This document shows positions 28,289 to 53,164 of a stretch of 64,000 bases of DNA, in pieces. Source of the DNA: a virus (Duplodnaviria; Caudoviricetes); IMG/VR virus record IMGVR_UViG_3300050336_000030. One strand, written 5' to 3'. The stretch's first letter is position 1. The number at the start of each line of letters is the position of its first letter. The position numbers and the translations under genes were made by a program. The notes under the pieces were generated by a model. That model did not search any database and was not told where the DNA came from. It worked only from the letters and a program-made list of their open reading frames with translations.

Positions 28289-29734
28289 TTACAAATGAAC
28301 AACCATATCTTTTGAAGAACACAGAACTCTAGATGTTTTATTCTTCTTATATATGGCATTCTGCATTTCTTTTTGCAGGTCTAATTTTGCCTGTTGAGAA
28401 CCATGAACTAAAATTATCTTCTCTGTATTTAATTCAGATCCTATTTCAACCAATTGATTATGATTAGCATGACTGCTAAAAGTCGAAAGAGTAATGCAAT
28501 CAGCTCTGTTTGGAATGGGTTTTTTATTTATTGTAAGCGTTTTATTATCTTTAAAATTTTTAATCCTATAAGATAAATAAGAACTATCTCCACCAACATA
28601 ACCGGAGAAAATAATCATGTTCTTATCGTCTTTTAAATATTCTTGCAGATAATTAACAACCCTACCATTTGTACAGAATCCCGAAGATGAAATTACTATC
28701 TTAGGATTATCGTCTTTTATGCAAGCTGTTGATTCATCTTTTTCTCTTATGAATTTAACATTTTTCCAGCTGTATACTTTATTCCAAAGATTTAAATTGT
28801 CTCCAGTAATTACTTCTGAATATAAATCACAAATATCACAACTCAATTTTGAATCAACTACTACATCATAATTAAATGATTTATCATCATGATATAATTC
28901 ATAAATAGTAGTTAGTAATTCTTGAGTACGACTAAAACTAAAAGCTGGTAATAGCACTTTTCCTTTGCGTTCCATTACGGTATTTATCGCTACTCGTAAA
29001 TGTTCTATATCAAACTCCCTGGTCTTTTTATTAATTCGTGTTGATTCTCCGTATGTAGATTCTAAAATTGAAATTTTGTTGAAATCTTTGCATATTTCGG
29101 TATTCTCTACATAATGATTATTACTTTTTATAGATCCAATATCGCTTGTATATAAGATAGACGTTTTATCATTATCTCCGTTTAATATTAATTGAAGCTG
29201 TTTTGATCCAACACAATGAGAATTTCTATACCATTTAAAACTTATCACATCATCTAATTTATATAATGTATCGTAATTATCATACTCATATACAAAATCC
29301 AATGCTCTATAAACATCGTCTTCAGTATAGATAGGAGAGTAGTCTCTTCCAAACTTTTTAGACAACATTCTTGCATCACTCTCTAAAATAAAACTGCTAT
29401 TTAATAGCATTGTTTCAAAGAATGCTGCGACTTCATGACAAGTAACGATTTTCCCCTTAAACCCCTCTTTTACTAATCTACATAATAGGCCGGAATGATC
29501 GATGTGTTGATGAAGTACAAAACAATAGTCTAATTCACTTGGAACAAATTTAAATTTAGCCGTATTTATACGATATGACTCCAATATAGAATTTGATTGA
29601 TATAATCCGCATTCTAATAAAATCTGTTTACCATTATATTTAATTAATATTTGACTCCCCGTAACATCATTGGAATTTTCTCCAATAAAATAAATACCAT
29701 CGCCTTTTAACTTTTTCTTGGCAATAATGTTCAC
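28289..29734 (-). CDS. MBL-fold beta-CASP ribonuclease
   Basis: HQHIDH, SHCVGS, YTSDIG, ESTYG, PAFSFSRTQE, SSGFCTNGR, FSSHA, LVHG. Confidence 0.9.
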   Translation of the reverse strand: MNIIAKKKLKGDGIYFIGENSNDVTGSQILIKYNGKQILLECGLYQSNSILESYRINTAKFKFVPSELDYCFVLHQHIDHSGLLCRLVKEGFKGKIVTCHEVAAFFETMLLNSSFILESDARMLSKKFGRDYSPIYTEDDVYRALDFVYEYDNYDTLYKLDDVISFKWYRNSHCVGSKQLQLILNGDNDKTSILYTSDIGSIKSNNHYVENTEICKDFNKISILESTYGESTRINKKTREFDIEHLRVAINTVMERKGKVLLPAFSFSRTQELLTTIYELYHDDKSFNYDVVVDSKLSCDICDLYSEVITGDNLNLWNKVYSWKNVKFIREKDESTACIKDDNPKIVISSSGFCTNGRVVNYLQEYLKDDKNMIIFSGYVGGDSSYLSYRIKNFKDNKTLTINKKPIPNRADCITLSTFSSHANHNQLVEIGSELNTEKIILVHGSQQAKLDLQKEMQNAIYKKNKTSRVLCSSKDMVVHL

Positions 29735-37225: not shown

Positions 37226-37807
37226 TTATAATTTGAAGTTGCTGAAGTCTGTATTTATGATTTTGTACTTTACATTACATTTCTCTGGTAACTTTATATT
37301 ATCTCCAATTATAAATATCATTGGCATGATAGGGTAGTGGTTCTTGTAATTTCCACTTATATAAAATTTTTCATATTTGTTATAATTAAATCCTTTATGG
37401 CTTATTTCTACTTCAAGTAATCCTACATCAAGTTTTCCATTGTATCTGTAACCAAATACTGCATCAGGTCTTATATCATCGTATACGGGTTCTATCTTAA
37501 AATTTAATATTTCTGCTTTCTTGTGAAGTTCTCTGTAAAAATCCGTTACCAATATGCTATGTCTTAGCTGCTTAGGTAATGTTTTCTTTGTGTGATAGAT
37601 ATATTCTTGTGATACAAAATCTCTGGTACGTCTAATCATCTTTTCTTTATATATCATCGCTAATCTCTTATAACATGATCTTACACTTGGAAAGAATACT
37701 TCAGCTATTGTAGAGGTAGTAGCTACTTTATAGTTGTTTATAAAGTTAATTATCTCGTAATCTCTACTTGTCATCATGGCCTCTATCCTTTCATCAAAAA
37801 TTTTCAA
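37226..37807 (-). CDS. Replic_Relax-family protein (wHTH + PD-(D/E)xK)
   Basis: MTSRDYEIINFI..LRHSILVTDFY..IRPDAVF..LLEVE; follows FtsK; true start probably ~37777. Confidence 0.75.
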   Translation of the reverse strand: MKIFDERIEAMMTSRDYEIINFINNYKVATTSTIAEVFFPSVRSCYKRLAMIYKEKMIRRTRDFVSQEYIYHTKKTLPKQLRHSILVTDFYRELHKKAEILNFKIEPVYDDIRPDAVFGYRYNGKLDVGLLEVEISHKGFNYNKYEKFYISGNYKNHYPIMPMIFIIGDNIKLPEKCNVKYKIINTDFSNFKL

Positions 37808-39029
37808 TTACCTGTAATAATTCATCATCTGTAGTGATTTTTTCATTTAACATAAATGCTTTGTTAATATAGGTATGTTTAATCAGTTCCTTACATTGTT
37901 CTATATCCAAATAAGGACATTGTATCTCAGTAATTTTCCCTCCACGTTTAAATTTACCATGACCATTTCCATGTAATTTTTCTAATCCAGTTTCATCAAT
38001 AATAATGCTGCTATTTGTTCCATTGAGTGTTTTTAACCCTAATACGTTGCCTATATTGACCTTTATTCCTCCAGTTACAACTTTAGAATCTGGTCTTTGC
38101 GTTGCAATTATAACATGTATACCACAACTTCTCGCTTTTCTCCCAAGTTCTTCTATTAGAGATAAACCATCTTTATTGTATTGTAAATCAGCAAATTCAT
38201 CTATTATTAGAATTTGATAATCAATTTTTGTATCTTTAAATTTACTATTATAACCTTTGATTCCAGTTACTCCAACACTATAAAAAAGATTGCTTCTTCG
38301 TTCAACCTCAATACATAATTCTTGTAATATTTTTTTTGCCTCACTAATATTACGCGAAAAACTTATTACTTGTTTTGACTTTGAAAATACAGAAAATTCA
38401 ACCCCCATTTTAAGATCTATTAAATGAAGTTTAATGTTAGTTGTAAGTAAAATATTAGTTATAATCGATCTAATTATTGTGCTCTTTCCTGATCCTGTTT
38501 CTCCGGCTATAAGCATATGTGGTTCTCCATCGGATAGGTCACATGTAATTAATTCTCCCCGTCTATCATATCCGATAATGATTGGCACATCACCTTTAAT
38601 CTTAATGGGAGAGTAGTGGTAATTGGATTTTAATTTCTCATTATATTCTTCAATGTATATTTCTTTATAAGTATATTTGATATCTATATCTTTTCCCACA
38701 TATTGCTCTATAGCTTCTTTTTTATCAAGAAAGTCCGTTAATGATAATCCACATGGCAGTGTAAATTTATAAATGGTACTGTAATCTGTTTTGTGTTTGC
38801 TTTTGAATATTGGGTATGCAATTCCTATTCCTAAGTCAAGATTCTTAAATATCTTATTGTATTTACTCCAAGTCCATCCATAATAAGCTAATCCAGCAAC
38901 ACCACTTGCGTTTAGCATATAACTAATCGGTGCAAATGGTGGATAGAGTGCAGATATAAATGCTCCACCTATAATGCAATAAATACTGGTTTCAATAAGT
39001 GAATCTTTCTTATCTTTTTTACTTGCCAT
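37794..39029 (-). CDS. FtsK/SpoIIIE-family ATPase with N-terminal TM helices
   Basis: PHMLIAGETGSGKS, LIDLKMG, IIDEFA, GIHVIIATQRP. Confidence 0.9.
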   Translation of the reverse strand: MASKKDKKDSLIETSIYCIIGGAFISALYPPFAPISYMLNASGVAGLAYYGWTWSKYNKIFKNLDLGIGIAYPIFKSKHKTDYSTIYKFTLPCGLSLTDFLDKKEAIEQYVGKDIDIKYTYKEIYIEEYNEKLKSNYHYSPIKIKGDVPIIIGYDRRGELITCDLSDGEPHMLIAGETGSGKSTIIRSIITNILLTTNIKLHLIDLKMGVEFSVFSKSKQVISFSRNISEAKKILQELCIEVERRSNLFYSVGVTGIKGYNSKFKDTKIDYQILIIDEFADLQYNKDGLSLIEELGRKARSCGIHVIIATQRPDSKVVTGGIKVNIGNVLGLKTLNGTNSSIIIDETGLEKLHGNGHGKFKRGGKITEIQCPYLDIEQCKELIKHTYINKAFMLNEKITTDDELLQVIENF

Positions 39030-39324: not shown

Positions 39325-40245
39325 CTACCTCCTAGTACAGAATACTTGTGGCTGATTGAGAATATTACCAAATTTTTGTAATCCCACTTTGTAATAGCCT
39401 AATGCATTTGAAAATTGTGAATTTGGCATTAATTTGACTGACGGGAAGTACTGTTTAAACAATTCATAGAATATAATTGCACTTCCACCACAGAGGTAGA
39501 TTTGTGTACTGGTAGACGGATAGTTTAATTGGAACTCTTTTATAATAGGATTTAAATATTGTTTTAATGTTGGAATTAAGAAATCGTTAGATACTTTTTC
39601 ACCATAAATGGTAAGGCCGTTAACAAGAATGTTTTCTGCATATTGAATATCATAAGCCAAGTTATACTTCTCGTTTACCTGGTTAATTATCTTGGAATAT
39701 ATTTTTTGTATGCCTTGCATCCAAGTATCATATTTGTGTAAGATTGGATTCCCATACATTATTTCTAAGTACGCAATATCAATTGACATTCCACCAAAGT
39801 CAAAGATAATAATATTTCCACTTACATCTTGTAGACTTAATAATGCTCCGATTCCTTGTGGCATAACCAATACATCATTAATTTGAAATTTAAATGGCTT
39901 ATCTTTGTAGATGACTTCACAGTTGTTATATCCGAGTATCATTTTCTTGAATTTATCTTTCTGAGATTTTAATTGGCTTATGGGTAATCCAACAACTAAG
40001 TAATAATCATCTGATCCGGTAAGTGCTAAGTTAGTAAGCGTAGTAACTTTGTTCATTTCTGAATCTGATTTGTCGAATTGTATATTTCTGTCACCAGCTC
40101 CGACGGAGTAATCAACTCCATCAATGGTTATAAAAGCGGAACTTCCCATTGTGATTCCTGACTTTGTATAAGCGGAACGAAATATCCTCATTTCATTATC
40201 TTTGGTGTATAAGTATCCATGGTCTAATCCTTTAATTTTACTCAT
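39325..40245 (-). CDS. ParM/StbA-family actin-like ATPase
   Basis: GLDHGYLYTK, VVGLP, PQG, IFDFGGMSID, LCGGSA, NALGY. Confidence 0.88.
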   Translation of the reverse strand: MSKIKGLDHGYLYTKDNEMRIFRSAYTKSGITMGSSAFITIDGVDYSVGAGDRNIQFDKSDSEMNKVTTLTNLALTGSDDYYLVVGLPISQLKSQKDKFKKMILGYNNCEVIYKDKPFKFQINDVLVMPQGIGALLSLQDVSGNIIIFDFGGMSIDIAYLEIMYGNPILHKYDTWMQGIQKIYSKIINQVNEKYNLAYDIQYAENILVNGLTIYGEKVSNDFLIPTLKQYLNPIIKEFQLNYPSTSTQIYLCGGSAIIFYELFKQYFPSVKLMPNSQFSNALGYYKVGLQKFGNILNQPQVFCTRR

Positions 40246-40417: not shown

Positions 40418-40963
40418 ATGTTGATATATTCAATTGCAATGATAATATTAATTATGTTTGTAATCTGGATCATAAACCATAAGCAGTATAAAGCAAATAA
40501 GCCAATTGGTGACATTGGGGAGAGTATAGTTAAAAATAGATTGAGTGTGCTAGTGGATGATTATGTCGTTGAACATAATGTTCATTTGGGGAAAGCTCAG
40601 ATAGATCATCTTGTAATTAACCATGGAGTTAAAATTGTATTTGTTATAGAAACAAAATTGTGGGGAGGTATTATTACCGGAAGTAGTAGTGATGATTACT
40701 GGAGACAGGATAAAAATGGGGTAATAAGATATTTTGATAATCCAATAAAACAGAATAATTATCATTGCAGCGTAGTGAGAAAATATTATTCTGGGTATAA
40801 GGTTTATAATGTAGTAGTGTTTGTTAAGAATAACAATGTACCTAAATCAAAATGTATTATTGGTGTAAATGATTTGGTTAATTATATTATTGGGATGACT
40901 AATAAGGTGTCTAATAGGGGTGGAATAGAGGTAGAAACAGACTGGTTGACCAAGAGGGTGTAG
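40418..40963 (+). CDS. NERD-domain nuclease-like protein with N-terminal TM helix
   Basis: GDIGE..QIDHLVI..VFVIETKLWGG..NPIKQN..H. Confidence 0.85.
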   Translation: MLIYSIAMIILIMFVIWIINHKQYKANKPIGDIGESIVKNRLSVLVDDYVVEHNVHLGKAQIDHLVINHGVKIVFVIETKLWGGIITGSSSDDYWRQDKNGVIRYFDNPIKQNNYHCSVVRKYYSGYKVYNVVVFVKNNNVPKSKCIIGVNDLVNYIIGMTNKVSNRGGIEVETDWLTKRV

Positions 40964-43000
40964 ATATTAGAAATACTATATTATTATTTTAATTTTGAAT
41001 CCTTATTGGCGTTTTTGCTACTGGTGGTACTATTTCATTTTTTTAAAATCAAAAAAAATCTCACGCGCGATAACACCTTCATTATGTAATCATGGTTGTG
41101 AGCCATTTTTATTATCTAGGTATAGTATTTAACATTTTAAAGATTTTATACGCTCTAAAGAATGATTAGAAATAAATAAGCATTCATTTTGGTTATGTTA
41201 TAGGTGTAATTTTAAACTATTGGATTAAATTTGAGTTTTAAGGGGTTGTTTTCTATTTTTAGTGGTGAGGTATATTAATTATCCTTAAAAGGATTTAAAT
41301 TGAAATTTGGGTTCATTTTCTGTGATTTAATACATAGATTACTAATTTTGGTGATGTGAGTATGTGGAGAGTTTAATTTCTAAGAGAATAGTGCATTGAT
41401 TCTTATGTTTATGAGCTAAATTTGATTTATCATTCTTGGAAGTGTTTCATATTGATAATATCAATGTTTATTTCTTTGTATATAAGTCATAGAGGCTCTA
41501 AAATGGTTTAGGTGGGTATTTTATTGTCTGTATAGGTAAAATCGATTCTAGGGTTGATTATAATTAAATTTTATAAGAAAAAGGTAATTTAATAAGTGGG
41601 TTATATATGGAACGGATGGTATATTGGATTGGGGAGTGAGTGTTATATGTAAAATATACTCCCTACTTCGATATGCTTCGGTGATGGTACATAGAAAATG
41701 TGGTGTAATGGCTGATTTTATGCGTGTTTAAGAGTATTATTGGATTAATTTTATGATGTGATTTATGATCAATCTGGTGCCATTTTAATGATTTTGGGTG
41801 TTGTTCGGGAGAATACAGTGTTTATAAGGGGTTGAGCGAGATTTGGGTTAGGATAATGGTAAGATAGGAGAGTAAATGATTTATATTTATGCAATTTTAC
41901 TAGTGGGCTAAAGTCGCTATTTTACTAGATTTGATTGGGATGGGTGAGGAGGAGTGTCGAACATGGTGCCGAAGGTTATTGTGATATTGCACAAATGGCT
42001 GAAAGTGGCTTAAATACTGGGGTTTCGACGTTTCAAAAGATTTGGGACGTGGAGATGGAACAGATAGGGCACTTTTTCTTTCTGGAAGCTTGCTCTAAAA
42101 TGTAAATATACCCCGGTCTAAGAATAAAATAATATGCCATAAAAGTATAGTATTATTGCATATTATCGAGTAAATATTGACTTTTGTTGAAAAAGTGTAA
42201 TTTTATATAGGTGAATCAATCAGGAATGATATAAATTTGATGTAAGAGATACTATAAATAATGACCACACTGGTCATATATCGGAGTTCGATATATTGAT
42301 TCTTTTTGACTAAATAATAAATTTTAGTCAGTATAATGAAATGGTACAATATTCACATTTTTAACTCTACCATAATCTATCAATCTCTTTATATATCACA
42401 TATCTATAATCATATCGCAATAGAAATATGACAATAGTATTATTTTCACCAACTTATAATATTATCTGTATAATCATACAGTTAATTTGCATATTTATAA
42501 TATGCTTTATATTGACTAGATTGCTAATTTCAGTCAATAAAATATTCATATTAGAAACATATTGTCACTGTATAAATTATCATATTGTATCTATAAATAT
42601 ACGTTATCATTTCATCCATAAATCAGCTCTATTAATCTTACTATTTAGTATTACATAGTAGAATATCAATCTATCATATTAACAATTCATTACTAAGTAT
42701 AAATGAGTACTAAATAAATCATCCCAATACCAGCTCTATTCACCTGATCACGTCCATTCATTTCCATTATATAATCAGGTCACACATATGCACCTTTATA
42801 ACCTCGTATACGTCTCATATAGCTATTCTATTATTCACACGATATCTAATACCTAAATTCATTTATAATCGATTCTAAGCCATACCATATATGGCGTATA
42901 AATCTATCTATATCAACCATTAACCACTACATATAGTATCCAACCATCGCATAATATAATTAGTATTTCCTGATACCATTTATCAAATAATCATTAAAAA
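40964..43000. other. Long non-coding spacer between divergent genome arms
   Basis: No credible ORFs; G/T-rich to ~42100 and C/A-rich from ~42350. Confidence 0.6.
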
Positions 43001-43004
43001 AGTT

Positions 43005-43054
43005 ATATGAAACGATAAAAAGGTATTGCAATAGTGATAGATATATGATACAAT
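43005..43054 (+). promoter_or_regulatory. sigmaA-type early promoter with ATATGAAAC box
   Basis: TTGCAA(43026)-17-TACAAT(43049) with extended TG. Confidence 0.6.
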
Positions 43055-43084
43055 AAAGATAGTTAAAGAAGAGGTAATCAATAA

Positions 43085-43131
43085 GGACTTTATGAACGGC
43101 ATACAATAGGATTCAAGTTCCTATAAGTCCA
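43085..43131 (+). ncRNA. tRNA-like element lacking an anticodon arm
   Basis: GGACTT/AAGTCC; TATG-AACGG-CATA; ATAGGA-TTCAAGT-TCCTAT (canonical 7-nt T-loop). Confidence 0.5.
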
Positions 43132-43267
43132 CTCTAGGTTATAAAGTAGTAACCATACAATTAGAACGGATAGACAACGAGCGGACGGAATCACCTGTCA
43201 TAACGGTATGACTTACATAACCAAATTGAACGGCGGACACAATTACATAGAGATAGGAGGTGATACC

Positions 43268-44028: not shown

Positions 44029-44271
44029 GTGATTATAGGAGGAAATAACATGGTAAAAAGAATTGAAACTAGGCTAAATTGTATGATTGATTGGTTAGAA
44101 AAGGAATCTATTGAGTATTCAAGAGAAGAGTTTAAAAAAGATGTTGAAAGAATGCAAGATGCAATAAATGAAGCATTATTCATTGATTTAATAACAGATA
44201 AGCAGTATTCAGAACTTACAGAATTAGTTAAAACAAAGTCTATTAAGTATTTTTTAAATAAATCAAATTAA
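44029..44271 (+). CDS. Hypothetical early protein
   Basis: ORF; probable start at ATG 44050 after AGGAGG. Confidence 0.6.
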   Translation: MIIGGNNMVKRIETRLNCMIDWLEKESIEYSREEFKKDVERMQDAINEALFIDLITDKQYSELTELVKTKSIKYFLNKSN

Positions 44272-44274
44272 GAA

Positions 44275-44344
44275 TTTATATGCAGAGTGGCAGAGGATAA
44301 AACCTCTGTTAATGCACTAGCTAAACGGTCACAAGTCCGATAAA
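44275..44344 (+). ncRNA. Twister ribozyme, P5-type permutation
   Basis: TTTAT..TGCA GA GTGG CAGAGG ataaaa CCTCTG TTAA TGCA..CGG TCACAAGT CCG ATAAA; P1, P2, P4, P5 and T1 all pair. Confidence 0.75.
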
Positions 44345-44376
44345 CAAGGCACTACCATATTATAGGAGGTTGTACA

Positions 44377-45114
44377 ATGGCAAGTATAGATTTTATAAGT
44401 AAACGTATCCAAGGTAAACAAAAGGAAATTGACAAATTAAATAAGAAGCTTGAAAGAATTCAGAAAGCTAAACAATCTAATTGGGAAAAGAACCCTTATT
44501 ACTATAGCGAATATGATTTAAACAGTACAGAAAAGGAATTGAATTTTGCAATTAAACAGCTTGATAGTTTGCAATCTGATTTACAAACAGCAAACGAAAA
44601 AGCAAATAGCCGTAATGTATTAGCAATAACTCAATTTTTAGATGCTTGGTTACAAAGAAATATAGAATTCTACACAGAGGAAAAGGAAAAATATGATATA
44701 GCTTTATCTGACTACCGGCAGCATGATAGAGATTACTGTAATTGGTTTAATTCACTAAGACATAATGTAACGGTAGAGAAAAGAAAAGAAGTAGAAAAGA
44801 ATCACAAAGAGTATAGAACTAATTTTATTAAATCTTGGAATACACAATTTGACCACGGAACTAAAGAATGGCATGAAACAATGCATAACGATTTAAAAGA
44901 GGAATACAATCGTAAATACGATTATATAATCGAAAAGACAAACGAAATAGTAGGCGAAATTACAGACGCAAGCTATTTAACAGTAGACGCAAACGGAAAT
45001 TTAAACGGCTACATTATAGGAACAAGAGGAAAAGCAAACGTCAATACAATCGGTGCAGGTGGTTACAATATACAATGTTATCATTTCAGAACGCTAATTC
45101 ATGAAATTAAATAA
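44377..45114 (+). CDS. Conserved phage coiled-coil protein
   Basis: C-terminal [24 protein letters not shown]; strong SD. Confidence 0.7.
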
Positions 45115-52505: not shown

Positions 52506-52506
52506 T

Positions 52507-52578
52507 CTCGACTAGACGAGTATAAACAGGCATTAGGTCTAGTGCGCCACACCTGTAATAACATCAGGTGTGGGTTGT
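52507..52578 (+). ncRNA. Pistol self-cleaving ribozyme
   Basis: CTCG ACTAGA CGAG TATAAACAG GCA TTAGG TCTAGT GCG CCACACCTG..CAGGTGTGG GT TGT; P1, pseudoknot, P2, P3, GCG and the G-U cleavage site are all present. Confidence 0.88.
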
Positions 52579-52634
52579 TAGATTATTAATCAATTAACTG
52601 TCTGTATTGGAAAAATAGAAAGGATGTGAGTTAT

Positions 52635-52777: not shown

Positions 52778-52845
52778 ATATGAAACAATTTAAAAATCTA
52801 TTGACAAATAAATGTAAATTTGGTATAGTAAAGGTAATATGAAAC
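52778..52845 (+). promoter_or_regulatory. sigmaA promoter flanked by two ATATGAAAC boxes
   Basis: TTGACA(52801)-17-TATAGT with extended TG; boxes at 52778 and 52837. Confidence 0.6.
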
Positions 52846-53107: not shown

Positions 53108-53164
53108 TTGACATGAACTAAAGTACATGGTATTATATACATATAAACATGAACTATAGTTCAT
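53108..53164 (+). promoter_or_regulatory. Promoter with two palindromic operators
   Basis: TTGACA-17-TATTAT; ATGAACTAAAGTACAT at 53113-53128 and perfect ATGAACTATAGTTCAT at 53149-53164. Confidence 0.75.

Follow-up and report, generated by a model that had tools for sequence, protein, structure and literature searches.

A type-P5 twister ribozyme separating two same-direction genes in a large phage of the YonO type, and its proposed part in cutting an early polycistronic transcript

Which part does a self-cleaving RNA play when it lies between two genes of a phage? Ribozymes in such places have been described since 2011-2015 (PMC3088659; PMC4604425), twisters, with three permuted forms and two pseudoknots, are textbook matter (PMC5408937), and the twisters of bacteria and phages still lack a formally established role (PMC6765202). 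The question is raised again by a stretch of 64,000 nucleotides (the window; bases 937-64936 of a 139,975-bp IMG/VR record), in which a sequence-only reading had placed a P5-permuted twister ahead of a gene for a 245-aa protein. The present analysis concerns the identity of this element, the divergent letters of its pseudoknots, its neighbourhood and its relatives. It points to an active type-P5 twister that lies in sense orientation within an early polycistronic transcript of a large phage of the YonO type, a reading which we regard as probable.

The carrier is an uncultured phage with direct terminal repeats and about 30% G+C, the genome of which is estimated to be complete. Its genes fall into two arms, the leftward one reaching to about 40 kb and the rightward one starting at about 40.4 kb. 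Portal and large terminase are encoded in the leftward arm, as is a 918-aa YonO-type RNA polymerase, which shares 41.6% identity with the split YonO homologue of Clostridium phage c-st, 37% with the proteins of Enterocloster bolteae phages and 26% with yonO of Bacillus phages of the SPbeta type; judged by this protein, the carrier appears closest to c-st. The rightward arm holds many small genes without assigned function and a primase. Where the arms diverge, an FtsK/SpoIIIE-type ATPase (37794-39029, - strand), an actin-like ALP segregation protein (39325-40245, - strand) and a NERD nuclease-related protein (40418-40963, + strand) were found. As these genes resemble plasmid maintenance functions, the phage may persist as an episome. 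They are followed by about 2.2 kb (40964-43207) without any ORF longer than 76 aa, be it in code 11 or with TGA read as W or TAG as Q, and this segment matched nothing in Rfam or in the DNA of cultured phages and contained no notable repeats; an origin, a regulatory RNA or decayed genes are possibilities. A 481-aa protein with Beta-Casp and RMMBL domains (28289-29734, - strand) represents an RNase J/CPSF-like nuclease that could act on RNA ends, and no link between it and the ribozymes was found.

When both strands of the 64-kb window were scanned against 4227 Rfam families, positions 44281-44340 of the + strand matched Twister-P5 (RF02684) along the entire model (positions 1-58 of 58) with 51.8 bits and an E-value of 7e-8, and the same match was returned by a search of the whole genome. 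Since the score lies 14 bits above the curated cut-off (gathering score, 37.6 bits) and the E-value is this low, the match is far beyond chance, and at the level of sequence and consensus structure the identity of the segment as a twister ribozyme is confirmed. A search with exactly this covariance model had been named as the check on the sequence-only reading; it came out positive and above the curated threshold, and the twister-P5 layout of that reading holds, each of its listed elements being found where it had been put.

The core (44281..44340, + strand) consists of the 5' strand of P2, L1, the P1 hairpin, the cleavage junction, the 3' strand of P2, a linker and P4 with L4. In P2, UGCA 44281-44284 faces UGCA 44313-44316 and forms three or four pairs, depending on whether A44316 takes part in P2 or in the pseudoknot T2. 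The 5' side of L1 is GAGUG (44285-44289). It is followed by the P1 hairpin (44290..44309, + strand), in which 44290-44296 pair with 44303-44309 in seven pairs including a closing G-U pair, with AUAAAA as the loop. The UAA junction occupies U44310-A44311-A44312 and the linker 44318-44325, while P4 and L4 (44326..44339, + strand) are built from CGG 44326-44328 pairing with CCG 44337-44339 around the loop UCACAAGU. P1, P2 and P4 are the essential helices of twisters and P5 is optional (PMC5408937), and the minimum free energy fold of the element yields P2, P1 and P4 (z = -2.4). In the alignment to the covariance model GCAGAG, G44289, UAAUGC, CGGUC, CAAG and CG all match, and the only mismatches at upper-case positions concern the T2 pair, which is compensated, and one A of the linker. 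Following the structural rules for the extra G-C pair, the U/A pair, T1 and T2 (PMC5408937), the conserved extra pair G44328-C44337 and the pair U44329/A44334 are present as well, assigned by homology. The G and the U equivalent to 44328 and 44329 are invariant and nearly invariant, respectively, in 24 aligned twisters, both positions having been left out of the search pattern.

Twisters cut at the U-A step of the P1/P2 junction (PMC5408937). From where the UAA junction falls in the model alignment, the scissile bond is predicted between U44310 and A44311 (44310..44311, + strand), and the adenine 3' of the predicted scissile phosphate, A44311, is present. It is the same bond that had been predicted before, then at about 65 nt upstream of the 245-aa gene; counted to the AUG at 44377, the distance is 66 nt.

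The pseudoknots deserve closer attention, as it was here that the sequence-only reading had seen a possible variant. For T1 it had paired GTGG with TCAC. Three of these four pairs stand, namely G44287-C44332, U44288-A44331 and G44289-C44330 (5' strand GUG, 44287..44289, + strand; partner C44330-A44331-C44332; assigned from the sequence), and the fourth is not supported, G44290 belonging to P1. For comparison, type-P5 twisters were gathered from IMG/VR by a pattern leaving the nucleotides of T1 and L2 free, and 25 were picked by P1 and P4 alone. As MAFFT alignments of the twisters were structurally inconsistent in the T1/P1 region, covariation was counted by a position-anchored script instead. 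T1 is fully paired in 24 of these 25 viral twisters, compared with 9.9 on average and 17 at most when partners were shuffled, and among the seven combinations encountered six are fully paired (GGG:CCC, GUG:CAC, GGA:UCC, GCG:CGC, GCA:UGC and GAG:CUC). P1 behaves in the same way: a helix of at least five pairs is formed by 95% of 106 distinct P1 segments of the same type (105 among the metagenome copies listed and that of the window itself), as against 5.7% of shuffled ones. T1 and P1 thus covary strongly across relatives.

For T2 the earlier reading had wavered between AC and GC as the partner in L2. The covariance model sets AC (44316..44317, + strand) beneath the consensus GC; its partner is G44335-U44336, two nucleotides that by the structural rules bulge from L4 to make T2. 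In the viral twister set an A in L2 accompanies only a U in L4 (10/10) and never occurs with a C (0/11), which assigns T2 to the pairs A44316-U44336 and C44317-G44335. Three of the ten (L108, L123 and L051) cannot form a fourth pair of P2, A standing opposite A, so the A there belongs to T2. The version with GUG/CAC and AC/GU, searched as an exact 28-base pattern, occurs in at least 129 copies in at least 120 metagenome contigs, with at least 105 distinct P1 sequences. The choice is hence settled for AC, and the suspected variant turns out to be a widespread pair: as far as comparison of the copies shows, AC:GU in the window is the compensated form of the usual GC:GC and a common natural variant. 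These data bear on the suspicion that the element might be a chance look-alike or a decayed relic which no longer cleaves, a suspicion that could draw on the departure of T2 from the consensus and on a P2 of maybe only three to four pairs. We consider this very improbable, given the E-value and the margin above the curated cut-off reported above, and given that the compensated T2 is common to at least 120 independent contigs with at least 106 different P1 stems.

The stem after which the type is named fared differently. The letters TTTAT (44275-44279) and ATAAA (44340-44344), which had been read as P5, are present and complementary in five A-U pairs, but a real helix was not borne out. Among the 128 listed metagenome twisters with the same T1 and T2, flanking helices of at least four pairs occurred in 4.7%, versus 7.1% with 3' flanks swapped between loci, and of at least five pairs in 2.3% versus 2.6%, so that the frequency in these listed twisters does not rise above chance. 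The helix 44275-44279/44340-44344 is absent from the minimum free energy fold, and in the twisters of two close relatives among the viral contigs (L008 and L009) no flanking P5-like helix was seen by eye. 'Type P5' would here denote an order of elements, without a supported stem. The letters TTTAT also form part of a 6-6-6 junction-like site, ATCAAA-TTAAGA-ATTTAT (44262..44279), which has two mismatches to ATAAAA-N6-TTTTAT, overlaps the stop codon of the preceding 80-aa ORF and contributes with its right arm the 5' strand of the proposed P5. At that stringency the motif is found 64 times in the whole window with 60 matches expected, i.e., without excess. 5' of the 245-aa homologue L008 has ATAAAA-TTAAGA-TTTGAT and L009 ATAAAA-TTAAGA-ATTGAA. 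A site centred on TTAAGA accordingly precedes the 245-aa gene in each of the three phages (at about 2903-2920 in L008 and 2897-2914 in L009); the genes 5' of it are unrelated, and the spacer 3' of it is occupied by the twister in the window, whereas in L008 and L009 it consists of unrelated sequence.

The twister fills the 105-nt spacer between the 80-aa ORF and the 245-aa ORF, both on the + strand. The former (44029..44271, + strand) ends with TAA at 44269-44271, 9 nt 5' of the ribozyme core; the latter (44377..45114, + strand) starts 37 nt past the end of the core and is preceded by the sequence AGGAGGU, taken as its Shine-Dalgarno motif (44364..44370, + strand). Neither protein matched Pfam or PHROG. 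Viral contigs gave no relatives of the 80-aa protein, which leaves the idea that the twister travels with this gene unsupported, and they gave no orthologue with the exact core of the window twister; by megablast the 5-kb neighbourhood had no match in cultured phages. Placement was judged from 129 metagenomic twisters with GUG/CAC and AC/GU among the matches listed. In this listed sample the nearest 5' ORF of at least 60 aa lies on the strand of the ribozyme in 113 of 116 cases, in 77 of 115 its stop codon overlaps the core or is at most 12 nt away from it, and a start on the same strand follows within 60 nt 3' of the twister in 65 of 110. The window, with 9 nt from stop to core and 37 nt from core to AUG, agrees with this pattern. 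The flanking proteins of the listed matches fall into 81 clusters for 103 upstream ORFs and 64 clusters for 82 downstream ORFs, and since the neighbouring genes are so unrelated, the twister is best seen as a generic intercistronic signal and not as the partner of one gene.

How loosely twister and gene are joined becomes apparent from the relatives of the 245-aa protein, homologues of which were found in eleven viral contigs. In L008 and L009, the two closest, it shows 85-86% amino acid identity, and it is the only gene of the neighbourhood that the window has in common with these close relatives. Each of the two carries one twister-P5, situated directly past the stop codon of the homologue and not before the gene. 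With 35.1 bits these twisters score just below the cut-off; by eye they display all helices, T1 as GGA:UCC and T2 as AC:GU. DNA homology between the window and L008/L009 extends only from 44357/44364, around the Shine-Dalgarno sequence, to 45114, the stop codon, and no neighbouring ORF is common to them, so that the twister stands outside the shared gene module. On the metagenome contig L160 a twister with a different P1 is found directly 5' of a distant 245-aa homologue. The gene consequently has its twister on the 5' side in the window phage and L160, and on the 3' side in L008 and L009. In the latter two, 85-105 nt separate the TTAAGA site from the gene, and these slots had no Rfam match at E <= 1. 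Another ribozyme in that place was considered and rejected, as the folds (z = -1.0 and -0.7) were like those of shuffled sequences in addition to the lack of an Rfam match. Denser tandem arrays of type-P5 twisters between small genes were observed on other contigs, with three copies within 2.6 kb (L091), three within 1.1 kb (L063) and two copies (L130).

Beyond the viral contigs, five cultured phages were searched, the carrier's own genome searches serving as the positive control. Neither twister-P5 nor pistol was present in c-st, Enterocloster CB457P1 and CB473P3, SPBc2 or Lysinibacillus LysYB1, which indicates that the ribozyme is dispensable for such phages. One might then suppose that the twister is a hitch-hiking module, i.e., a small mobile or recombination-shuffled spacer at cassette joints that brings the phage no benefit. 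The position of the twister outside the homology block, its occurrence on the other side of the same gene in the relatives, its absence from these five phages and the adjoining 6-6-6 site, the TTAAGA centre of which is kept in L008 and L009, are in line with this. However, the core nucleotides and both pseudoknots are intact and compensated in all copies examined, which argues for selection on activity, and the strict sense orientation in 113 of 116 listed matches speaks for a role that the element plays as RNA, inside mRNAs; we hold a module without benefit to be improbable. A further, tentative idea, which we rate as rather unlikely, is that the ribozymes are free-standing, interchangeable punctuation modules, occupying the slot between cassette joint and gene and being gained, lost or moved independently of the genes. 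Under this idea selection would act on cutting somewhere near the joint and not on a given UTR.

The twister is not the only ribozyme of the carrier. On the same strand and 8.3 kb 3' of it, a pistol ribozyme (52506..52579, + strand) matches RF02679 along the whole model (positions 1-68 of 68) with 59.6 bits against a cut-off of 34.5 and an E-value of 2.5e-8, its predicted cut being G52574/U52575. It starts with the first base past the stop codon of a 65-aa ORF, and past it strong promoter-like sites with TG extensions (52801-52829 and 53108-53136) precede an HTH gene and a gene for a GmrSD_N/ParB-like nuclease. The whole genome thereby comes to two ribozymes and one tRNA, the rest of it containing no further ribozyme at gathering score or E <= 1. 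Within the window ARAGORN gave neither a tRNA nor a tmRNA, and at 43026-43200 there was no Rfam match up to E <= 1. RtcB is not encoded by the phage. Ligation of the segment between twister and pistol into a circle was considered and dropped, owing to the missing RtcB and the lack of support for a circle of 8.3 kb.

The + strand between 40 and 54 kb yielded no terminator-like site, and this finding, together with the promoter-like sites past the pistol, makes 3'-end formation a close rival of the preferred reading. The selected role would then be to trim the upstream message and leave it capped by P1, as a substitute for a terminator, with any effect on the downstream message being incidental or negative. 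Twisters do hug the upstream stop codon far more tightly than the next start, as the 77 of 115 listed matches within 12 nt demonstrate, the pistol begins right after a stop codon, and P1 would stay behind as a 3'-terminal hairpin after the cut. Yet the Shine-Dalgarno sequence of the 245-aa gene follows only 24 nt past the core, with no promoter-like site in between, so translation of the gene would have to start from either the cleaved fragment or RNA that has stayed intact. The two explanations differ in emphasis only and are inseparable by sequence alone. We judge the 3'-end role as the selected one to be somewhat unlikely, though the strongest of the alternatives.

The preferred reading remains that of an active twister whose role is most likely to cut the polycistronic early transcript. 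The element belongs to the twister family, is oriented in the sense direction and is placed between genes; that the site is transcribed, that cleavage occurs in vivo and that the mRNAs are affected is what we infer from these facts. In the proposed course of events, the host RNA polymerase would transcribe through the twister site, after which P2, P1 and P4 would form and L4 would dock through T1 (GUG:CAC) and T2 (AC:GU). The 2'-OH of U44310 would then attack the adjacent phosphate. The upstream product, with the 80-aa gene, would have U44310 as its last nucleotide and bear a 2',3'-cyclic phosphate there, right behind the P1 hairpin; the downstream product would carry a 5'-OH on its first nucleotide, A44311, which lies 66 nt ahead of the start codon of the 245-aa gene. 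In the predicted folds of both products the P1 hairpin is the sole clear feature. The cut would make the upstream and downstream messages independent of each other with respect to stability and perhaps translation, and the pistol would do likewise at the end of the gene block. A 2007 study by Collins et al. is said to have found that the 5'-OH end produced by the glmS ribozyme of B. subtilis is a substrate of RNase J1. If the end generated here were treated in the same manner, the cut could destabilise the downstream message instead of protecting it. Processing of long phage transcripts was proposed for hammerhead arrays, for which cutting was demonstrated in vitro and in E. coli, and native polycistronic fragments were likewise shown to be cleaved (PMC3088659), and a 2019 review offers the transcript-processing reading for twister, too (PMC6765202).

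Seen against known systems, the locus is of a familiar kind. With type-P5 twisters (RF02684; Roth et al. 2014 as summarised in PMC5408937) it shares the order of elements, the conserved nucleotides and both T1 and T2, whereas it differs in having AC:GU instead of the consensus GC:GC in T2, no P3, an unsupported P5 helix and a P2 of three or four pairs. As in hammerhead prophage operons (Perreault et al. 2011, PMC3088659), sense-strand ribozymes lie between co-directional phage genes with variable neighbours; terminase, portal, YonO-type RNA polymerase and terminal repeats mark the carrier as a phage. The presence of more than one ribozyme class in one gene block resembles known phage associations (PMC3088659, PMC4604425 and PMC6765202). 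According to the latter two, pistol was discovered because twister, hammerhead and pistol ribozymes occur near phage genes and near one another (Weinberg et al. 2015). In contrast to clustered hammerheads, the window phage has just two ribozymes, 8.3 kb apart, of different classes and without a hammerhead; its distinction is that the carrier is a complete 140-kb YonO-type phage, five cultured neighbours of which lack both twister-P5 and pistol. A comparison can also be drawn with glmS of Bacillus subtilis, for both are cis-cleaving ribozymes in an mRNA of a Firmicute system and leave a 5'-OH on the coding fragment, which in the window is predicted. The glmS ribozyme requires a metabolite cofactor and is located in a 5' UTR; the window twister, by contrast, is intercistronic, and we know of no cofactor requirement for twister.

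A twister between phage genes is a known kind of element in a known kind of place, and in this sense ordinary. With this locus, a complete large phage genome of the YonO type (SPbeta / c-st) gains one twister of secure identity and one pistol, and as the current picture is left unchanged, the value of the find is confirmatory. Modestly new are the complete YonO-type carrier, the displacement of the twister relative to a conserved gene between close relatives and the figures for strand and stop codon. The bias towards the sense strand (113/116), the proximity to the stop codon (77/115) and the independence from particular genes, each among the matches listed, bear on the question of what bacterial and phage twisters are for. 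If the ribozymes are indeed modules that come and go at such joints, a cultured relative with a module of this sort would make the function of phage twisters directly testable.
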